Positions 5,859 through 15,990 of a stretch of DNA of 32,000 bases are shown here, piece by piece. Positions within the stretch are counted from its first letter, which is position 1; each line of letters begins with the position of its first letter. Below the pieces are notes generated by a model. That model was given only the letters and a program-made list of their open reading frames with translations. It was not told where the DNA came from and made no database searches. This DNA is from Promethearchaeia archaeon. GTDB lineage: Archaea > Asgardarchaeota > Lokiarchaeia > Sigyniarchaeales > SOKP01. The DNA is taken from the NCBI GenBank assembly GCA_046497275.1, contig JAWOFX010000134.1:1-32000 (forward strand), in the 5' to 3' direction. A program made the position numbers and the translations under genes.

Positions 5859-6959
5859 ATGACACCTAGAAGAGAATTGAACCCGGCGGCACGTATGCTA
5901 AAATCGATGGCATATTTAAAGCCGGATAGAGTACCCGTTTTATTTTTTCCCGAATTCGACCTTATGGCAGATTTCGCTGGCAAGAAAGTGAAAGAATACC
6001 TTAATGATGTAGATTTACAAATTGAGACCGGAGAGAGATTTAAAGAGAGATTTTCTGATGCCTATTGCGCAGTTTCTATATACCAACCATACGCAGTTGC
6101 AGAAGCATTGGGCTGTAAATTAATGGAACCGGAGGATTTAATCCCATCCGTGCTAGAAAGGGCTATTCAATCACCCAAAGAAATTGAAGAGTTAAAAGTC
6201 CCAGACACTTTATGGGATTTGCCCGGTACGGGAGACTGGTTAGAAAAAATCGAATATTCCTTAGAATCTGGTATAAAACCCGCTGGTACAGGTGAATTTG
6301 GTCCAGTAGAATTAGCAACTTTAATTTATGGTTATAACAAATTTTTATTTCATATGGTCAAAAAACCTGAGTTGATTCATACTCTATTGGAAAAATGTAC
6401 TGAAGTTGTTATAAAATTCCAAAAAGAATGGATTGAACTTATTGGTGGGTATGCGACTATTATACTTATAGCAGATCATGTCAGCGGTTTCATGCGAAGG
6501 AAATATATTGATGAATTTTTTGCTCCGTATCATAAGAGAGTATGTGAAGAACTGACGCCAATGACTGGAGCTATGTTTTATCATTCAGAAAATGAAAGTG
6601 AGCATTTTTTGGATGAAATAGGCGATTGGGGATATGCGATGTTCCATGGACAAGAATGGGGTCCTCATAAAAAAGCAAAAGAAACAGTTATGAATTTAGA
6701 AAACAAATTTACTTTAGTAGGACAAATACCTGGTCGAGATGTAATGCTCAGAGAACCTGATGATGAAGTTTTAAAACAAAAAATTATTGAAAATATTACC
6801 ATCTATGGTCCGGGAAGTGGTTATATCCTCTCGACGGGTGGTGGTGTCAATAGAGGTACTCCATTTGAGCGAATGGATATGATGATTGAACTGACTAAAA
6901 AATACGGAAGATATAAAACAAAGAGAAAGCTCTATGGACCAGAGGAAGGTTTAGATTAG
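5859..6959 (+). CDS. Uroporphyrinogen decarboxylase-like / MtaA-CmuA methylcobamide methyltransferase family protein
   Basis: PDRVPV, VAEALGC, FGPVELATLIYG...F..HMVKKPELIHTLLEKCT, IADHVSG, VGQIP and GYILSTGGGVNRGTPFERM follow the URO-D TIM-barrel superfamily pattern. It lacks the RQAGR motif of true HemE. Confidence 0.85.
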   Translation: MTPRRELNPAARMLKSMAYLKPDRVPVLFFPEFDLMADFAGKKVKEYLNDVDLQIETGERFKERFSDAYCAVSIYQPYAVAEALGCKLMEPEDLIPSVLERAIQSPKEIEELKVPDTLWDLPGTGDWLEKIEYSLESGIKPAGTGEFGPVELATLIYGYNKFLFHMVKKPELIHTLLEKCTEVVIKFQKEWIELIGGYATIILIADHVSGFMRRKYIDEFFAPYHKRVCEELTPMTGAMFYHSENESEHFLDEIGDWGYAMFHGQEWGPHKKAKETVMNLENKFTLVGQIPGRDVMLREPDDEVLKQKIIENITIYGPGSGYILSTGGGVNRGTPFERMDMMIELTKKYGRYKTKRKLYGPEEGLD

Positions 6960-9958: not shown

Positions 9959-10516
9959 TTATTTTTTGTTTTTCAAATTTTCAAGTTCATTCTCAATATT
10001 TTGTAGAAAACCTTCTAATTTTTGGATTCTCATCTTAACAAATCGTTTTCTTCTTTCTAAGAGTTTTATCTTTTCTTCCTTCGGGATTTTTTGTGATTTT
10101 CTAAAAATCATTGGGGGGAACATAATGCGTTCGATATCATCATCAAACAAATCATCTTCTTCCAATCCAAATGATGTAATAATTATTGAACGCATTGCCT
10201 TCATCATATCTCTCTGTTTTTGGATCAGTCTTTTTAAAGTTTCCTCGCCTTTCAGTGTTAATTTATAATTTTTCCTTGGACGTTTGTCTTCTTTCTCCTC
10301 TTCAATTATCTGTATTAAGTCATTTTTGCATAAATCATCTAAAAGCGGATACATTGTCGAGGCTGAAGGTTTCCACATGCCAAGCGTAAAATTCTCGATT
10401 TCCTGCATAATTTTATAACCGTGCATCGGTTTTTTTTCCAGAATCGTGAGCACTAGCATACTCATAAATCCTTTTTTCATTGCTCTTTCAAACCGTTTAA
10501 CATGCTCTTCTGTCAT
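9959..10516 (-). CDS. PadR-family transcriptional regulator
   Basis: LVLTILEKKPMHGYKIMQEIE...SASTMYPLLDDL...RPRKNYKLTLKG is the PadR wHTH; C-terminal coiled coil. Confidence 0.93.
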   Translation of the reverse strand: MTEEHVKRFERAMKKGFMSMLVLTILEKKPMHGYKIMQEIENFTLGMWKPSASTMYPLLDDLCKNDLIQIIEEEKEDKRPRKNYKLTLKGEETLKRLIQKQRDMMKAMRSIIITSFGLEEDDLFDDDIERIMFPPMIFRKSQKIPKEEKIKLLERRKRFVKMRIQKLEGFLQNIENELENLKNKK

Positions 10517-10598: not shown

Positions 10599-10985
10599 AT
10601 AAAAACTCTTAAATTAAGCTATTGAAAAAAAAATAGGTTCTCTTAGAAATTAAAATTAAATTTCAACTAAATTGAACTAAAGATGAGGAATATAATTTCA
10701 CATATTTCACGATATTAATAAATTCTGATTACTTTTTCCATTCCATTCCAAATAATTTATAGCTATCTGATACACCCATTAAATTTTCTACTTGAATACG
10801 GAATCCTTCAATATTTGAGACAAAAGGCACGAAATCCATAAAATCTCTTTTTTTATTTTTTTTAATACTAGGAATGAGATTTCTAAATTCTATTGTTATC
10901 TAAAAGAATTCTGATCACATAAAATTATGAAATATTACTATAAGATATAAATTGAACGGAGAGTATTTGTAATAAGAGAGTCAAT

Positions 10986-11450
10986 ATGAGTGAAATCGTT
11001 CCAGAAAAAATTCATATAAAATATCTTGATTCGATTGAGAATAGAGAATCATTTTTGCCGCGAAAATATACTCTCACTCATTCAGATTTTACGGGAGATC
11101 TCTTTTTAACAATTAGTAAAGAATATGATACTGAAGAGTTTTCAGATTTCTATACGAAATTAATGAGGGATGAAGTGTTAGCAGAATGGAAGAAGAATGA
11201 GGATGAATATGAGCTTCATGTGTATCTCCACGTAAGCGGCGGTTTTGCTTTTGGTGGGGCATGGCTGCGAGATAAGATATTTCGACATCATATGCCTCAT
11301 GTCTTAAAAGTAATTAGATATGGGGATAATGAACTTTTTGAAGCGATTCCAGAACTTGATAACTGTAATATTATAGTCCATTTTCAATCGCAAAAAAAGA
11401 AATATGACACTGTTGAAAACTTTGGGCAATTTAGAGAGTATAAAGAATAG
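10986..11450 (+). CDS. Stay-green (SGR) family protein, Mg-dechelatase homolog
   Basis: LPRKYTLTHSDFTGDLFLTI, LMRDEVLAEWKK, LHVYLHVSGG and KVIRYGD match the plant/bacterial Staygreen motifs (PRxYTLTHxD, RDEVxAEW). Putative metal ligands H32, D34 and D62 are intact. Confidence 0.9.
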   Translation: MSEIVPEKIHIKYLDSIENRESFLPRKYTLTHSDFTGDLFLTISKEYDTEEFSDFYTKLMRDEVLAEWKKNEDEYELHVYLHVSGGFAFGGAWLRDKIFRHHMPHVLKVIRYGDNELFEAIPELDNCNIIVHFQSQKKKYDTVENFGQFREYKE

Positions 11451-11504
11451 ATACCCATAATTAAACTTTTAGAATAAAACTTCCCTATTAAATTACTATT
11501 CATT

Positions 11505-12848
11505 ATGAATTCTAGACGAGTCCGGCAATTAAAAAAGGCACCTGAAAAAAAAGGACCAATTTTATATTGGATGAGTAGAGATCAGCGAATAAACGACAAT
11601 TGGGCGTTAATATATGCCCAAGAGAAAGCAATAAAAACAAAAAGTCCGCTTGTTGTTATTTTTAACTTATTGCCAGAGTTCAAGGAAGCAACCATGAGAG
11701 CATATAAGTTTATGGTAAATGGATTACAAAAATTAGAAAAAAAGTTAGACTCACTTAACATCTCATTTGTTCTCAAACAAGGATACTCCGAAGAAACCAT
11801 CCCAAATTTTATTGATGATTACAATATAAGTGTATTGATCACTGATTTCTCTCCCCTCAAGATAAAACAAGCATGGATTGATAAAATAAAAGACCTTATC
11901 TCAGTTCCCTTTTATGAAGTAGATGCTCATAATATAATCCCAGTCTGGGAAGCCTCGAATAAAAAGGAATATGCTGCCTATACATTACGTAGTAAGATTG
12001 AAAGCAAATTAAATCAATATTTAGATGAATTTCCAAAAATAAAAAAACATCCAAACCCCTGGAATGAAAATTTTTCTTCTATTGAATGGTCTAAAATCTT
12101 TAATAAAATGAATCTTCAACAAATTCAATCTAATAGCATTGATTTTATATCTGGAGAAGATGAAGCTCATAAAACTTTAAAAAAATTCCTTAAAACTAAA
12201 TTTCATGACTATAATAGGGATAGGAATGATCCAACCAAAGACGCGACTTCTAATTTGTCTCCTTATTTACATTTTGGACACATAGCGTCTCAGAGAGTGG
12301 TTTTAGAAGCTCAAAAAGTGAAACCAATAAAACAGTTAAAAAACTCCTTTTATGATGAGATTATTGTTCGAAAAGAATTATCTGATAATTTCTGCTTTTA
12401 TGAATCTAGCTATGATGCTTTTGAAGGATTTCATTCTTGGGCAAAAGAAACGTTAAATACCCATCGTAATAATGAAAGAGAATATATCTATTCGACAGAA
12501 GATTTCGAAAATGCAAAAACTCATGATGATGCGTGGAATGCTGCTCAACTTCAGATGGTCAAAACAGGAAAAATGCATGGATATATGAGGATGTATTGGG
12601 GGAAAAAGATTCTTGAATGGACGGAATCTCCAGAGCAGGCTCTTGATATTGCGATTTATTTGAATGATAAATACGAATTGGATGGGAGAGATCCAAATGG
12701 ATATACGGGAATTGCATGGTCCATAGGTGGTATTCATGATAGAGCATGGAAGGAGCGAAAAATCTTTGGAAAGGTAAGATATATGTCCTATAATGGTTTA
12801 AAGAGAAAATTTGATATTCAAAATTTTATAGATAATTATAATTCTTAA
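11505..12848 (+). CDS. phr: Class II CPD DNA photolyase
   Basis: ILYWMSRDQRINDNWAL, SNLSPYLHFGHI, EIIVRKELSDNFCFY, MHGYMRMYWGKKILEW and NDKYELDGRDPNGYTGIAWSIGGIHDRAWKERKIFGKVRYM are diagnostic of class II photolyases. Confidence 0.97.
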   Translation: MNSRRVRQLKKAPEKKGPILYWMSRDQRINDNWALIYAQEKAIKTKSPLVVIFNLLPEFKEATMRAYKFMVNGLQKLEKKLDSLNISFVLKQGYSEETIPNFIDDYNISVLITDFSPLKIKQAWIDKIKDLISVPFYEVDAHNIIPVWEASNKKEYAAYTLRSKIESKLNQYLDEFPKIKKHPNPWNENFSSIEWSKIFNKMNLQQIQSNSIDFISGEDEAHKTLKKFLKTKFHDYNRDRNDPTKDATSNLSPYLHFGHIASQRVVLEAQKVKPIKQLKNSFYDEIIVRKELSDNFCFYESSYDAFEGFHSWAKETLNTHRNNEREYIYSTEDFENAKTHDDAWNAAQLQMVKTGKMHGYMRMYWGKKILEWTESPEQALDIAIYLNDKYELDGRDPNGYTGIAWSIGGIHDRAWKERKIFGKVRYMSYNGLKRKFDIQNFIDNYNS

Positions 12849-12866
12849 AAAAAGAGGTAGATAGAT

Positions 12867-13859
12867 TTGAATGAGTTTGTAAAACCGACGGTAGTAAGCT
12901 CAAAATGCATTGAATTTGAGTATTGTCGTTATAATGCGAATATTATAAGTAGTGATGTAGTAAAAGAGATGAAGAGTTTTGTAAACTTTATCCCTGTGTG
13001 TCCAGAAGTTGAAATCGGGTTGGGTGTTCCAAGAGATCCAATTCGGATTATTCAAGAGGATGATTCTTTAACATTAATGCAAAGTTCCACGGGAAGAGAT
13101 GTGACATCCTCAATGATTAATTTTGCGGAAAATTTCTTAGATTCTCTGGATTATGTAGATGGATTTATTTTGAAATATAAATCACCGTCTTGTGGCACTA
13201 AACACACTCCATATTTGGCAAGCATCCAAAAAGGGGCAGCGAAATTAGGAATGGGTCCTGGTTTGTTCGGAAAAGTAGTAATGGAAAGATTTCCAAATTT
13301 ACCTATTGAAAATGAAGGGAGACTGAAAAATTTCAGAATACGAGAATATTTTTTAACTAAATTATACACAATTGCTAGGTTTAGAGAAGTCAAGAATTCT
13401 GAAAAAATGCGAAGATTAGTTGACTTTCAGGCAAACAATAAATTTCTTTTCATGGCATATAATCAGGCAGAGATGAGAGAAATGGGTCGTATAGTCGCAA
13501 ATCAAGAAAAACAATCTTTCTCAACACTCATAACAAAATATGAATCTCATCTTCTCAAACTTTTAGCTTATCCACCAAAATTTACTTCTCACATAAATGT
13601 GTTGATGCATATGTTAGGTTATTTCTCAGATGACCTTACAAAAGATGAGAAGGCATATTTTCTTGATGAATTGGAAAAATATCGAGCAGGATGGATCCCA
13701 TTATTCGTTATGAGAAGTCTACTGAAATCTTGGATAGTAAGATTTAATCAGCCCTATTTAAAAACTCAGACCTATTTCGAAATCTTTCCGGAAGAGCTCA
13801 TGAGATTTGATTTAAAAGATACTTGGCGGGGGAGAAGTTATTGGGAGAAACCAAAATGA
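12867..13859 (+). CDS. rudS: DUF523 (TudS thiouracil desulfidase)-DUF1722 (YbgA) fusion, RudS-like tRNA 4-thiouridine desulfidase; TTG start
   Basis: SSKC...CRYN, PVCPEVEIGLGVPRDPIR and KSPSCG supply the three TudS [4Fe-4S] Cys; the DUF1722 half has HINVLMHMLGYF and YLKTQTYF. AGAGGT SD lies upstream. Confidence 0.85.
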   Translation: MNEFVKPTVVSSKCIEFEYCRYNANIISSDVVKEMKSFVNFIPVCPEVEIGLGVPRDPIRIIQEDDSLTLMQSSTGRDVTSSMINFAENFLDSLDYVDGFILKYKSPSCGTKHTPYLASIQKGAAKLGMGPGLFGKVVMERFPNLPIENEGRLKNFRIREYFLTKLYTIARFREVKNSEKMRRLVDFQANNKFLFMAYNQAEMREMGRIVANQEKQSFSTLITKYESHLLKLLAYPPKFTSHINVLMHMLGYFSDDLTKDEKAYFLDELEKYRAGWIPLFVMRSLLKSWIVRFNQPYLKTQTYFEIFPEELMRFDLKDTWRGRSYWEKPK

Positions 13860-14548
13860 AATTAATTGGTCTCATTGGAGGTATGAGTTGGGAAAATACT
13901 ATTGACTACTACAGAGTAATTAATGAAATAGTTAATGAAAGATTAGGAGATTGGAATTCAGCAAAAATAATACTCTATTCAGTTAATTTTCAAGAAATTT
14001 TACCGCTTCAAAATAGTGATAAATGGGATATAATTACTGAAGAGATGATTGAAATCTGCAAAAAACTTGAATTGATAGGATGCAAAGCTATTGTAATTTG
14101 TTCAAATACGATGCATAAGATCGCCGATCAAATTGAATCACAGATTTCAATTCCCATCATTCATGTCGTTGATGAGACCTCAAAAGCAATAAAAAAGAAG
14201 AACATTAATAAAGTAGGGTTATTAGGCACTAGATTTACCATGGAAGGAGGCTTTTATGTTAGAAGACTAGAAGATAGGCACAATCTCTCTGTATTACTCC
14301 CAAAAAAGATGGAAAGAGACTACATTCACAATGCGATTTATACTGAATTTGCTAAAGGTATATTTAAGAATAAAACTAAGGAAAAATTTTTAGAAATTAT
14401 ACATGAACTAATAAATAATGGGGCAAAGGGAATAATCCTTGGCTGTACAGAGATTCCCTTAGTTATTAAGCCCAAGGATGTGAAAATTCCTTTATTTGAT
14501 ACTCTTAAAATCCACCTTCTGGGTGCTGTTGATTACATGCTAAATTAA
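13856..14548 (+). CDS. Aspartate/glutamate racemase family protein (YgeA/RacX-like)
   Basis: MKLIGLIGGMSWENTIDYY, CSNTMH, GLLGTRFTM, ILGCTEIPL. Start moved from 13823 to the ATG at 13856, which forms an ATGA overlap with the upstream stop. Confidence 0.93.
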   Translation: MKLIGLIGGMSWENTIDYYRVINEIVNERLGDWNSAKIILYSVNFQEILPLQNSDKWDIITEEMIEICKKLELIGCKAIVICSNTMHKIADQIESQISIPIIHVVDETSKAIKKKNINKVGLLGTRFTMEGGFYVRRLEDRHNLSVLLPKKMERDYIHNAIYTEFAKGIFKNKTKEKFLEIIHELINNGAKGIILGCTEIPLVIKPKDVKIPLFDTLKIHLLGAVDYMLN

Positions 14549-14763: not shown

Positions 14764-15255
14764 ATGGTAAATTTTATTTCCCAAGAAATGAACGATTTAA
14801 TGAATAAACAAATCGTCGAAGAACTAAGATCAGCATATATATACTTAGGAATGGCTGCGTGGGCGGATCGAGAGGGTCTAAAAGGCTTCGCTCAGTTTAT
14901 GCGTACACATGCAGAACAAGAAGAATATAAACATGCAATGAAATTCGTAGATTATATCTTAGAAGCTGGAGGTAAAGTAGAATATGGAACAATTGAAAAA
15001 ATCTCGACTGACTGGCAGGATGTTGAAACCGTTTTAAAAGAGGCAATTTCCCATGAAGAACATATTACCAGCACAATAAAGAATTTAATGGATTTAGCTC
15101 AACAGAAGAATGAAGTATATGCATTTGAACTTTTAAATTGGTTTCTTGAAGAGCAAATGGAAGAGGAGAATCTATTCACTGATCTCTATGATGCTTTTAA
15201 ACTAAGTGGCAGAAATCTTCTTATGTGGGACAGAAATATTAAACATCCAGAATAA
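14764..15255 (+). CDS. ftn: Non-heme ferritin
   Basis: MNKQIVEELRSAYIYLGMA, EEYKHAMKFVDY, AISHEEHIT and LLNWFLEEQMEEE give the ferroxidase-centre pattern; GGTGA SD at 14752-14756. Confidence 0.93.
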   Translation: MVNFISQEMNDLMNKQIVEELRSAYIYLGMAAWADREGLKGFAQFMRTHAEQEEYKHAMKFVDYILEAGGKVEYGTIEKISTDWQDVETVLKEAISHEEHITSTIKNLMDLAQQKNEVYAFELLNWFLEEQMEEENLFTDLYDAFKLSGRNLLMWDRNIKHPE

Positions 15256-15306: not shown

Positions 15307-15990
15307 TTAGATAAACTCAAGAGAAAATTCTACAATATCATTTTCGAAATCCATTTTTTCAATCTGAGCCCTAACCTTCAAATTTAGCTTTTTTTGGATA
15401 GATTTTTCAATAACGCCCATCATAATATAAAAATGAATTTGCATAAATCTCCCAAGTTCTTTTATATTACTCAGACGATATATGGCTCTCTTCTTATGCT
15501 CATCTAATTTAGTAATAACATTTATTTTATTTCTATAGACAAATTGAACGAATGGAATCATGCTTCCAAAATAAGTTAAAAATTTATCCACGGACTTTCC
15601 GTTGTTTTTTGGGAGAACTTCTGCGGGTACTTTCGAACCGTAAGGAAAATCCATATAATCAGCTATTTTTTTTCCTATCATTTTTAATTTTTCTTTATCT
15701 TCAATGAACTGGTCTAACCCATTCAACAACCCCTCAAAATACGAAAAGACCATTTCTCTGGGAATTAACTGGCTTTTGGAACTATAATAGAGTTTATACG
15801 CACCAATTTCTTTGAAAAATACTTCTTGCCGTTCTAACAAAATCGCTATATATTTTCCAGCAGTAACGCGAGAGGTATTTATACCCTTTGCGATATCAGT
15901 GATGGTTACCCCTGAAGGATTATGATCAATGAAGGCGATAATTTCCTCTCTATACTCCTCAGCAGACTTTTTGTTCTTTGATTTTTTCAT
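15307..15990 (-). CDS. Winged-HTH regulator with C-terminal V4R/H-NOX-like alpha/beta domain (putative)
   Basis: N-terminal HTH GVTITDIAKGINTSRVTAGKYIAIL. The C-terminal GKKIA...YRLSN...HFYIMMGVIE...VEFSLEF resembles the V4R-like fold (by eye). Confidence 0.65.
   Translation of the reverse strand: MKKSKNKKSAEEYREEIIAFIDHNPSGVTITDIAKGINTSRVTAGKYIAILLERQEVFFKEIGAYKLYYSSKSQLIPREMVFSYFEGLLNGLDQFIEDKEKLKMIGKKIADYMDFPYGSKVPAEVLPKNNGKSVDKFLTYFGSMIPFVQFVYRNKINVITKLDEHKKRAIYRLSNIKELGRFMQIHFYIMMGVIEKSIQKKLNLKVRAQIEKMDFENDIVEFSLEFI

Follow-up and report, generated by a model that had tools for sequence, protein, structure and literature searches.

The main finding of this study is a gene association: in a non-photosynthetic Asgard archaeon, a homolog of Staygreen (SGR), the enzyme that removes Mg from chlorophyll in plants, is, as judged from sequence, encoded in one operon with a photolyase and a tRNA de-thiolating enzyme. 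The 32,000-nucleotide stretch of DNA analysed (hereafter, the window) holds, at positions 10986-14548 of the plus strand, four tightly packed genes for SGR, a class II photolyase (phr), a RudS-like desulfidase and an amino-acid racemase (Table 1). Gaps of 54 nt (SGR-phr) and 18 nt (phr-RudS) separate the first three, and the last two share an ATGA overlap, in which the racemase ATG (13856) overlaps the RudS-like TGA (13857-13859). An earlier sequence-only reading had described four co-oriented genes with these gaps and this overlap, and the coordinates of the open reading frames agree with it; the identities that it assigned to the four products were upheld by Pfam and NCBIfam and, RudS excepted, by PDB matches.

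Table 1. Features of the SGR region, in window coordinates.
Feature	Position	Strand	Supporting evidence
PadR regulator, divergent	9959..10516	-	PF03551 E 1e-20; heads opposite-strand ABC-transporter operon
Conserved upstream block, probably promoter	10924..10968	+	Alignment of five SGR upstream regions
Staygreen (SGR) Mg-dechelatase homolog, 154 aa	10986..11450	+	PF12638 E 6e-49
Class II CPD photolyase, 447 aa	11505..12848	+	DNA_photolyase; TIGR00591 phr2 621 bits (cut-off 550)
RudS-type desulfidase (TudS-DUF1722 fusion), 330 aa	12867..13859	+	PF04463 E 3e-35; PF08349 E 1e-41
YgeA/EcL-DER-like Asp/Glu-family amino-acid racemase, 230 aa	13856..14548	+	TIGR00035 asp_race 233 bits (cut-off 93)
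Non-haem ferritin	14764..15255	+	PF00210 E 7e-32; 3' neighbour across 215-nt AT-rich gap

Anatomy of the four-gene unit

Contigs from RNA libraries that are 99-100% identical to the window span the SGR-phr junction (X6, 11324-11692; X8, 11199-11565), and a metatranscriptome contig of the same identity range spans the phr-RudS junction (X6, 12764-13237); these contigs fall short of proving a single transcript, as RNA libraries can hold DNA, and they carry no light/dark contrast. Some stretches have no RNA contig (e.g., 10567-11067 and 14408-14741), which has no bearing on the transcript ends. We consider it reasonably probable that the four genes form one transcription unit and that this unit is the local version of a mosaic light and photo-oxidative-damage island, with putative roles for SGR and the racemase. 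An Rfam search of the window returned no RNA family, and scans for sigma-70 promoters and terminators, models that are not relevant to archaea, gave scores at the level of shuffled sequence.

The SGR family model covers residues 6-152 of the protein, its full length (166 bits against a cut-off of 27), and the match to AbSGR-h (PDB 7y5y; E 6e-49) is also full length, with identical residue numbering. Eight residues (R26, Y28, T29, H32, D34, R61, D62 and R95) are invariant in 11 Asgard SGRs, among which D114 is at least 90% conserved. The window protein keeps the catalytic D34 and D62 of AbSGR-h, together with H32 and the structural R26, Y28, T29 and D114. Published work has shown D34 and D62 to be indispensable in AbSGR-h (PMC8531759) and SGR homologs from bacteria to remove Mg from chlorophyll in vitro (PMC8531759, PMC11006732), an activity termed promiscuous by Obata 2019 (cited in PMC8531759). 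The window protein has every residue required of a Mg-dechelatase, and its active site is predicted to be intact and of the AbSGR-h type. The likeness to AbSGR-h, from Anaerolineae bacterium SM23_63 (7Y5Y), thus extends from numbering and these seven residues to a non-photosynthetic host; the accessible text of PMC8531759 and PMC11006732 states neither a native role nor a gene context for AbSGR-h, whereas the window SGR, whose activity is predicted, sits in a putative light-repair operon. With the SGR/NYE1 chlorophyll-degradation pathway of plants it shares the protein family and the catalytic residues; in contrast to plants, the archaeon has no chloroplast, endogenous chlorophyll or known downstream PAO/RCCR pathway, and the partners of SGR are DNA- and tRNA-repair enzymes. 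Searches of the source genome (98.9% complete) with Photo_RC and BchH gave no match. Since the genome shows no reaction-centre or BchH gene, any chlorophyll-type substrate of SGR would be exogenous. Inspection of the SGR N-terminus by eye revealed no hydrophobic signal-like or membrane segment.

The photolyase matches the class II enzymes of M. mazei (2xry, E 2e-159) and rice (3umv, E 6e-129). A TTG (12867), located 7 nt 3' of a GAGGT, is the start codon of the RudS-like gene, whose product combines a TudS domain (PF04463, residues 10-150) with DUF1722 (PF08349, residues 192-308). Its Cys14, Cys45 and Cys109 have the 31/64 spacing of Cys16/47/111 in RudS_TT, so that the three cysteines of the [4Fe-4S] cluster are present; a PDB sequence search with this protein gave no match at E <= 0.001. 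The source genome also encodes ThiI, the s4U synthase (PF02568, E 1.5e-50, C34:19904-20479). RudS has been found in light-responsive operons together with photolyase (PMC11417400), in agreement with the earlier view that the phr-DUF1722 neighbourhood is a known light-operon pairing. As in the light-inducible phrB-RudS operons that LitR/CarH controls in Pseudomonas and other bacteria, and as in E. coli ybgA-phr (PMC11417400), the photolyase gene lies directly beside the DUF1722 gene, and the likeness includes the three-cysteine fusion type of RudS, ThiI in the genome and a presumed defence against UV/UVA damage. The window unit differs from those operons in its archaeal host, its class II photolyase, the lack of a MerR/B12 regulator among the window ORFs scanned, and in being led by an SGR homolog and ended by a YgeA-like racemase. 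The racemase, matched over residues 1-229 by PDB 3ojc (E 1e-66) and 5hqt (E 6e-60), adjoins phr, RudS or heliorhodopsin in 11 related loci of family f1 besides the window; it is a conserved member of the cluster, which the sequence-only reading had left unexplained. A start at the upstream TTG 13823 was set aside because relatives align only from the ATG.

Upstream of SGR, the block aligned over five regions (A3) is almost invariant, while the SGR proteins are only 71-93% identical. It contains an invariant 14-mer (10924-10937) and a TATAAAT (10946-10952, -40 to -34 relative to the SGR ATG), and a purine run resembling a Shine-Dalgarno sequence lies immediately 5' of the ATG; the block is probably the promoter, with a putative TATA box or operator. 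It was not found 5' of the heliorhodopsin, methyltransferase, MFS-AKR, ATP10-like or ferritin genes of the same genome, where the 14-mer occurs twice in all. Because the block is not repeated at other light genes, no regulon can be claimed, and a shared operator was dropped as a candidate, the SGR promoter having no motif in common with the other light-gene promoters of the genome. The ferritin gene probably forms its own transcription unit: none of the RNA contigs among the matches listed spans its junction with the racemase. Its position is kept in L032, L146 and L147, and it lies farther downstream in L033. The divergent PadR gene was also considered as regulator of the unit and judged unlikely. 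It remains with the ABC genes in G274, where 2.7 kb are inserted between PadR and SGR, and it is missing from L143; since it travels with the ABC operon, PadR probably lies outside the light unit. A gene of 229-230 aa, without a match to any family and unrelated to the window ORF at 15307-15990, is found 5' of SGR in L143, L147 and G274 and is missing from the window.

Linkage of SGR to light-related genes

The order SGR-phr-RudS-racemase recurs in three related Lokiarchaeial contigs (G274/L032, L146 and L147), and a fourth, L143, has SGR followed by a cut phr. Two congeners (G275, G278) carry phr-RudS-racemase without SGR and two others (G273, G277) carry SGR without phr; SGR is a modular part of the cluster. 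Of 400 Asgard genomes surveyed, 108 have SGR, 132 have heliorhodopsin (HeR), 101 have photolyase and 45 have DUF1722 (41 above the cut-off). HeR or photolyase is present in 97/108 SGR genomes (90%) versus 88/292 SGR-less genomes (30%). Presence and absence of SGR and HeR also go together within genera (g12, 35/3/4/12; g13, 19/3/4/16; g49, 12/1/3/6), 2x2 tables that are descriptive only, since kin genomes are not independent. Photolyase is missing from most SGR-bearing genomes of g12 and g13, and in family f31 SGR, HeR and photolyase never share a contig. In 37 genomes SGR lies within about 10 kb of HeR or photolyase, in several gene orders and with two photolyase classes; the SGR-HeR distance is at most about 10 kb in 31/81 genomes with both, and the SGR-photolyase distance at most 6 kb in 16/43. 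The arrangements with photolyase comprise SGR followed by phrII, phrII followed by SGR, a convergent pair of SGR and a class-I-type phr, and HeR, racemase, phr, SGR and methyltransferase in succession. The possibility, raised with the sequence-only reading, that the linkage of SGR to phr is not conserved does not hold, since the link of SGR to light genes is strongly conserved.

Beyond Asgard, a search for related loci with the single SGR protein recovered nothing, and one with the SGR alignment A1 recovered loci. HeR, photolyase or RudS lies within 8 kb in 10/31 of these SGR loci. In Chloroflexota, Bathyarchaeia and one Thermoproteota cell, SGR stands beside genes for HeR, photolyase, RudS, TspO-like or CarH/LitR proteins; TspO-like genes adjoin it in four non-Asgard loci, and a regulator of the MerR+B12 (CarH/LitR) type lies beside it in three loci of Anaerolineales (L134, L107, L125). 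Our literature search found no paper on a link between SGR and light.

The window ORFs of at least 100 aa that were scanned include no MerR/B12 regulator, which bears out the earlier remark that no LitR/CarH photoreceptor is nearby. The missing photoreceptor is most likely heliorhodopsin, encoded elsewhere in the genome and a neighbour of SGR in 31 relatives. The source genome has one HeR gene (C51:36740-37486), with a pair of fused ABC genes as neighbours, on contig C51 and not on the SGR contig; its methyltransferase and AKR-MFS pair also lie on contigs other than that of SGR. HeR is known to bind photolyase (TfHeR; PMC9769723), and its partner operons include HeR-glutamine synthetase and the OcHeR-OmrDE ABC transporter (PMC11109279). 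SDR, photolyase and ABC groups figure among the ten into which HeR neighbours have been classified, and Staygreen is absent from these ten (PMC11109279). Similarly to these partner operons, HeR in relatives belongs to the same strand-run as racemase, photolyase and SGR (L043), or lies directly beside SGR; they differ from the source genome, whose HeR is on a separate contig, and the HeR-SGR partnership is putative. A complex prediction for the genome's own HeR with SGR (alignments A4 and A1) gave an ipSAE of 0.00, which has no weight either way.

Proposed function and alternative explanations

We hypothesize that the unit belongs to an island of Asgard, Bathyarchaeia and Chloroflexota that would join SGR with rhodopsins, photolyases, RudS, TspO-like proteins, CarH/LitR and antioxidant or lipid-modifying enzymes. 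Expression may begin at the conserved block 5' of SGR, and the single heliorhodopsin of the genome is the leading candidate for sensor or partner. From homology, the photolyase would use blue light to reverse cyclobutane pyrimidine dimers, and the RudS-like protein would use its three-Cys [4Fe-4S] cluster to remove the UVA-absorbing sulfur from the 4-thiouridine that ThiI makes in tRNA. SGR may take Mg off chlorophyll-type pigments, which would be acquired from the debris of phototrophs because the cell makes none. Mg removal would limit or redirect the photosensitiser load; the dechelation products pheophytin and pheophorbide are still photosensitisers. The MFS, SDR and methyltransferase genes beside SGR in relatives may move or further modify its substrate. 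The three-pronged photoprotection system claimed earlier is thus upheld in part: the conserved unit, the RNA contigs over two junctions, the phr-RudS pairing and the linkage of SGR to light genes speak for it, and the Mg-removing, protective role of SGR is one that we infer.

Among the alternatives, one holds that SGR is a rhodopsin-linked enzyme whose true substrate is not chlorophyll, Mg-dechelation of chlorophyll being a promiscuous side activity, as the term used by Obata 2019 would have it. SGR could then be a client regulated by HeR, like glutamine synthetase, photolyase or the ABC transporter, or work together with the neighbouring retinol-DH/LPOR-like SDR, the substrate being a different chromophore or metal complex. 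Its commonest neighbours are indeed HeR (31 genomes), a PRK06197-type SDR (25 loci) and a small methyltransferase (17 loci); SDR, photolyase and ABC groups are among the published classes of HeR neighbours, and family f19, which lacks HeR, has a type-1 rhodopsin 1.2 kb from SGR. However, neither the catalytic Asp pair nor the structural residues of the chlorophyll-active AbSGR-h vary, the TspO-like genes that adjoin SGR outside Asgard belong to a tetrapyrrole-binding family, and in the window SGR accompanies photolyase and RudS, not HeR; we regard this explanation as unlikely, if still worth serious consideration.

A unit for general oxidative or metal stress rather than light, in which SGR releases or handles a chelated metal and the photolyase link reflects shared stress regulation only, appears to us rather improbable. 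Such a role also fits the SGR genes outside light islands, whose neighbours are rubrerythrin and OsmC (G277, with rubrerythrin, SGR and an OsmC-like gene in succession) or a DtxR-type repressor and a ZIP transporter (G258, G262), as well as the conserved 3' ferritin and the AhpC peroxiredoxin that adjoins SGR in f19. These antioxidant neighbours are, however, accounted for by photo-oxidative stress itself, photolyase, RudS, heliorhodopsin and CarH/LitR have a specific relation to light, and HeR or photolyase is three times as frequent in genomes with SGR as in the others. Congeners that carry either part of the unit without the other would agree with a mere insertion of SGR 5' of an older phr-RudS-racemase operon in this genus, an adjacency without functional meaning. 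This we hold to be very improbable, since SGR adjoins photolyase in at least four arrangements, which span two photolyase classes and two domains of life, and a gene in a 3.5-Mb genome would, by a rough estimate, fall by chance within 8 kb of one of three single-copy genes in about 1-2% of cases.

Significance for SGR, heliorhodopsins and Asgard archaea

Extending the light-defence reading to the whole family, we tentatively propose, as a possibility that we rate below even chance, that prokaryotic SGR is a dedicated part of a rhodopsin-centred (mostly HeR) and photolyase-centred system against light and photo-oxidative stress, acting on exogenous Mg-tetrapyrrole photosensitisers and possibly under direct control of HeR. 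If this is true, the enzyme that plants later recruited to break down chlorophyll had served non-phototrophs in defence against light, and a new class of heliorhodopsin client has to be added. The finding bears on the role of SGR homologs in chlorophyll-less organisms, where the literature, in its accessible parts, treats the activity on chlorophyll as promiscuous, and on the purpose of heliorhodopsins; the cross-domain link of SGR to photolyase, RudS, HeR, TspO-like and CarH/LitR genes makes both questions testable at the bench. Fe-S-rich Asgard archaea, supposedly inhabitants of the dark, would retain a multi-part light defence, with consequences for views of where they live (shallow sediments, salt lakes) and for models of the niche of the eukaryote ancestor.

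Layout and products of the four-gene unit

The sequence-only reading had described four co-oriented genes separated by 54 nt, 18 nt and an ATGA overlap (-4 nt), and the junctions, when read, matched these values. A longer racemase ORF starting at an upstream TTG (13823) was unsupported, because the alignments of relatives begin only at the ATG. Upstream of the Staygreen homolog (SGR), at a distance of 469 nt, is a divergent PadR gene, and a ferritin gene follows the racemase after a 215-nt AT-rich gap.

Features of the proposed light unit and its surroundings in the window
Feature	Position	Strand	Remark
SGR	10986-11450	+	ORF listing, junction reading
Photolyase (phr)	11505-12848	+	ORF listing, junction reading
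RudS-like gene	12867-13859	+	TTG start, 7 nt 3' of GAGGT
Racemase	13856-14548	+	ATG overlapping RudS-like TGA as ATGA
Conserved block	10924-10968		45 nt, 5' of SGR
RNA-library contig X6	11324-11692		crosses SGR-phr spacer
RNA-library contig X8	11199-11565		crosses SGR-phr spacer
RNA-library contig X6	12764-13237		crosses phr-RudS spacer
URO-D-family gene	5859-6959		beside ABC/PadR genes

The window SGR scored 166 bits against PF12638 and aligned with identical residue numbering to the crystallised Anaerolineae homolog AbSGR-h (PDB 7y5y; E 6e-49). Residues R26, Y28, T29, H32, D34, R61, D62 and R95 are invariant across 11 aligned Asgard SGRs, and D114 is nearly so. The AbSGR-h study describes D34 and D62 mutants as inactive and still soluble, and R26, Y28, T29 and D114 as structural residues (PMC8531759). 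The photolyase exceeded the TIGR00591 cut-off of 550 with 621 bits and matched the class II enzyme of M. mazei (E 2e-159). The RudS-like protein contains both TudS and DUF1722 domains, its Cys14, Cys45 and Cys109 match the cluster-binding cysteines of Thermus RudS in their spacing, and ThiI is encoded in the host genome. Homology shows predicted roles in CPD photoreactivation for the photolyase and in tRNA s4U desulfidation for the RudS-like enzyme. In two other RudS-like proteins (L123:4558-5544 and L057:6858-7844), from Bathyarchaeia and the Asgard genome G019, the third cluster cysteine is missing (SPTSA instead of SPSCG). The racemase is of YgeA/EcL-DER type within the Asp/Glu racemase family; a second YgeA-like racemase of the host (G000:C60:10876-11562) is 50% identical to it.

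The order SGR-phr-RudS-racemase-ferritin is repeated in the congener G274 (L032) and at loci L146 and L147, whose SGR proteins share 71-75% identity with that of the window, while at L143 (93% identity) SGR and the start of phr reach the contig end. The 45-nt block is almost invariant in five genomes and includes TATAAAT at -40 to -34, so we infer it to be the probable SGR promoter. The spacer crossings by X6 and X8 come from one study; a contig from a second study contains the entire SGR-phr spacer, but just 11 nt of SGR. The presence of both spacers in RNA libraries follows from these contigs; a single transcript is not thereby proven. In close relatives, a 229-230-aa protein with hydrophobic N- and C-terminal ends and no family match is encoded directly 5' of SGR (L143:5201-5890; L147:4787-5479; two copies in G274, L032:10911-11603 and 12262-12951); this gene is absent from the 469-nt intergenic region of the window. 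The position of the URO-D-family gene, which may encode a true uroporphyrinogen decarboxylase or a paralog of corrinoid methyltransferase type, is kept in L032, L143 and L146.

Association of SGR with light genes in Asgard genomes

When the ORFs around SGR in relatives were clustered, heliorhodopsin (HeR; PF18761, E 1e-89) emerged, without having been looked for, as one of the recurrent neighbour families. One set of 400 genomes of the phylum was searched for four families, giving Staygreen in 108, photolyase in 101, DUF1722 in 45 (41 above cut-off) and HeR in 132. HeR occurs in 81 of the 108 SGR genomes versus 51 of the 292 without SGR, HeR or photolyase in 97/108 versus 88/292, and, at genus level, HeR in 10 of 12 SGR-bearing genera versus 20 of 73 others, figures that are descriptive only, since kin are not independent. 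Within three genera SGR and HeR are present or absent jointly (both, SGR only, HeR only and neither: 35, 3, 4 and 12 in g12; 19, 3, 4 and 16 in g13; 12, 1, 3 and 6 in g49). Two SGR-only cases, both HeR-less, carry pseudogenes interrupted by stop codons (G188:C1:1569031-1569264 and G059:C1:90359-90781), which fits joint decay of the pair.

Of the 81 genomes with both genes, 31 place SGR and HeR on one contig at a distance of about 10 kb or less, and SGR is linked to HeR or photolyase in 37 genomes. The neighbourhood of Staygreen with photolyase and DUF1722 genes, put forward from the window, recurs: 16 of the 43 genomes with both genes have SGR and photolyase no more than 6 kb apart, and phr-RudS-MFS-SGR is found in G190 and G245. 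The linkage is not universal; in family f31, SGR, HeR and photolyase never share a contig and are far apart on two complete chromosomes.

Varied arrangements within and beyond the phylum

SGR precedes a class II phr in genus g1 and in G256, and HeR, racemase, phr, SGR and a methyltransferase follow one another on one strand in G234. The G256 contig C16 (L114, DATKTW010000016.1) is labelled Nanopelagicaceae in the public record and Asgard in the genome collection, and its genes are 100% identical to those of L044. In the HeR-less family f19, SGR and a class-I/8-HDF-type photolyase are convergent, and a type-1 rhodopsin (PF01036, E 4e-22; L047:9931-10569 (-), also L046 and L048) is encoded ~1.2 kb from SGR, with genes for first an AhpC peroxiredoxin and then a fasciclin-domain protein in the intervening stretch. 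In f16, HeR, SGR, an SDR and a class-I-type phr lie within 6 kb; tocopherol-cyclase-like and DUF1295 (steroid-reductase/ICMT-like) genes flank the SGR-HeR pair (L051:12517-13467; L050:14499-15389), which hints at a lipid-antioxidant module. In f1, a divergent PRK06197-type (retinol-DH/LPOR-like) SDR is near SGR in 25 loci, a small class I methyltransferase is directly 3' in 17, an MFS transporter (adjoining SGR in Chloroflexota too), an aldo-keto reductase (AKR) and an ATP10-like protein are among the commonest neighbours, and the racemase is conserved beside HeR, phr and RudS. Outside light islands, SGR of G258 and G262 (L003, L012) adjoins a DtxR-type repressor and a ZIP metal transporter.

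In the host genome these neighbours are scattered: contig C51 has HeR, C84 the methyltransferase and C44 both AKR and MFS, and the ATP10-like gene comes shortly after the end of the window. Two congeners (G275, G278) lack SGR and carry phr-RudS-racemase; two others (G273, G277) carry SGR and lack phr. Therefore, the island is a shuffled set of modules rather than a fixed operon. At L055:2846-10502 (G000:C51), the only HeR of the host is just 3' of a pair of fused ABC transporter genes, 603 and 622 aa long, and a gene for a 778-aa EF-Tu-like GTPase, a layout repeated in G274 (L056, G274:C52) and reminiscent of the published HeR-OmrDE ABC pairing.

A pattern scan based on the SGR alignment gave 80 loci, 31 of them non-Asgard, and HeR, photolyase or RudS lay within 8 kb of SGR in 10 of the 31, the rough chance estimate for any of three single-copy genes being ~1-2%. 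HeR is the immediate neighbour of SGR in contigs from Anaerolineae (four) and from a Thermoproteota single cell (one), RudS adjoins SGR in Bathyarchaeia and Chloroflexi, and photolyase is within 2-6 kb in Anaerolineales, where three SGR loci also carry a MerR plus B12-binding (CarH/LitR-type) regulator. A TspO-like gene is present at four non-Asgard loci, directly upstream of SGR in two.

Possible function of SGR and novelty of the operon

Both the nearest SGR proteins and the syntenic contigs carry the label Promethearchaeota/Lokiarchaeia. The host does not appear to make chlorophyll, because its 98.9%-complete genome gave no match to reaction-centre (PF00124) or BchH sequences. Window DNA is present in freshwater-sediment and other sediment metagenomes, and parts of it occur at 99-100% identity in salt-lake metatranscriptomes. 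SGR may strip Mg from exogenous chlorophyll-type pigments, photosensitisers that settling debris of phototrophs would supply in abundance. A weak point of this photoprotection proposal is that the dechelation products remain phototoxic. The main rival explanation is a rhodopsin-linked function with a substrate other than chlorophyll; the second is a general oxidative or metal-stress role, and in G277, where SGR is likewise outside a light island, it is flanked by rubrerythrin and an OsmC-like gene (L149:5869-7614).

Full-text literature searches found no relevant paper on staygreen with rhodopsin or photolyase, none surfaced for staygreen with heliorhodopsin, and a 2026 preprint on prokaryotic chlorophyll degradation mentions neither operons, gene neighbours nor photolyase. 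Published HeR neighbourhoods include HeR-photolyase, HeR-SDR and HeR-ABC (PMC9769723, PMC11109279); Staygreen is not among the HeR-neighbour groups published. The phr-RudS pair is the known light-operon pairing (PMC11417400); we class the window operon as a variant of a known light-damage operon type, the variant itself being new.
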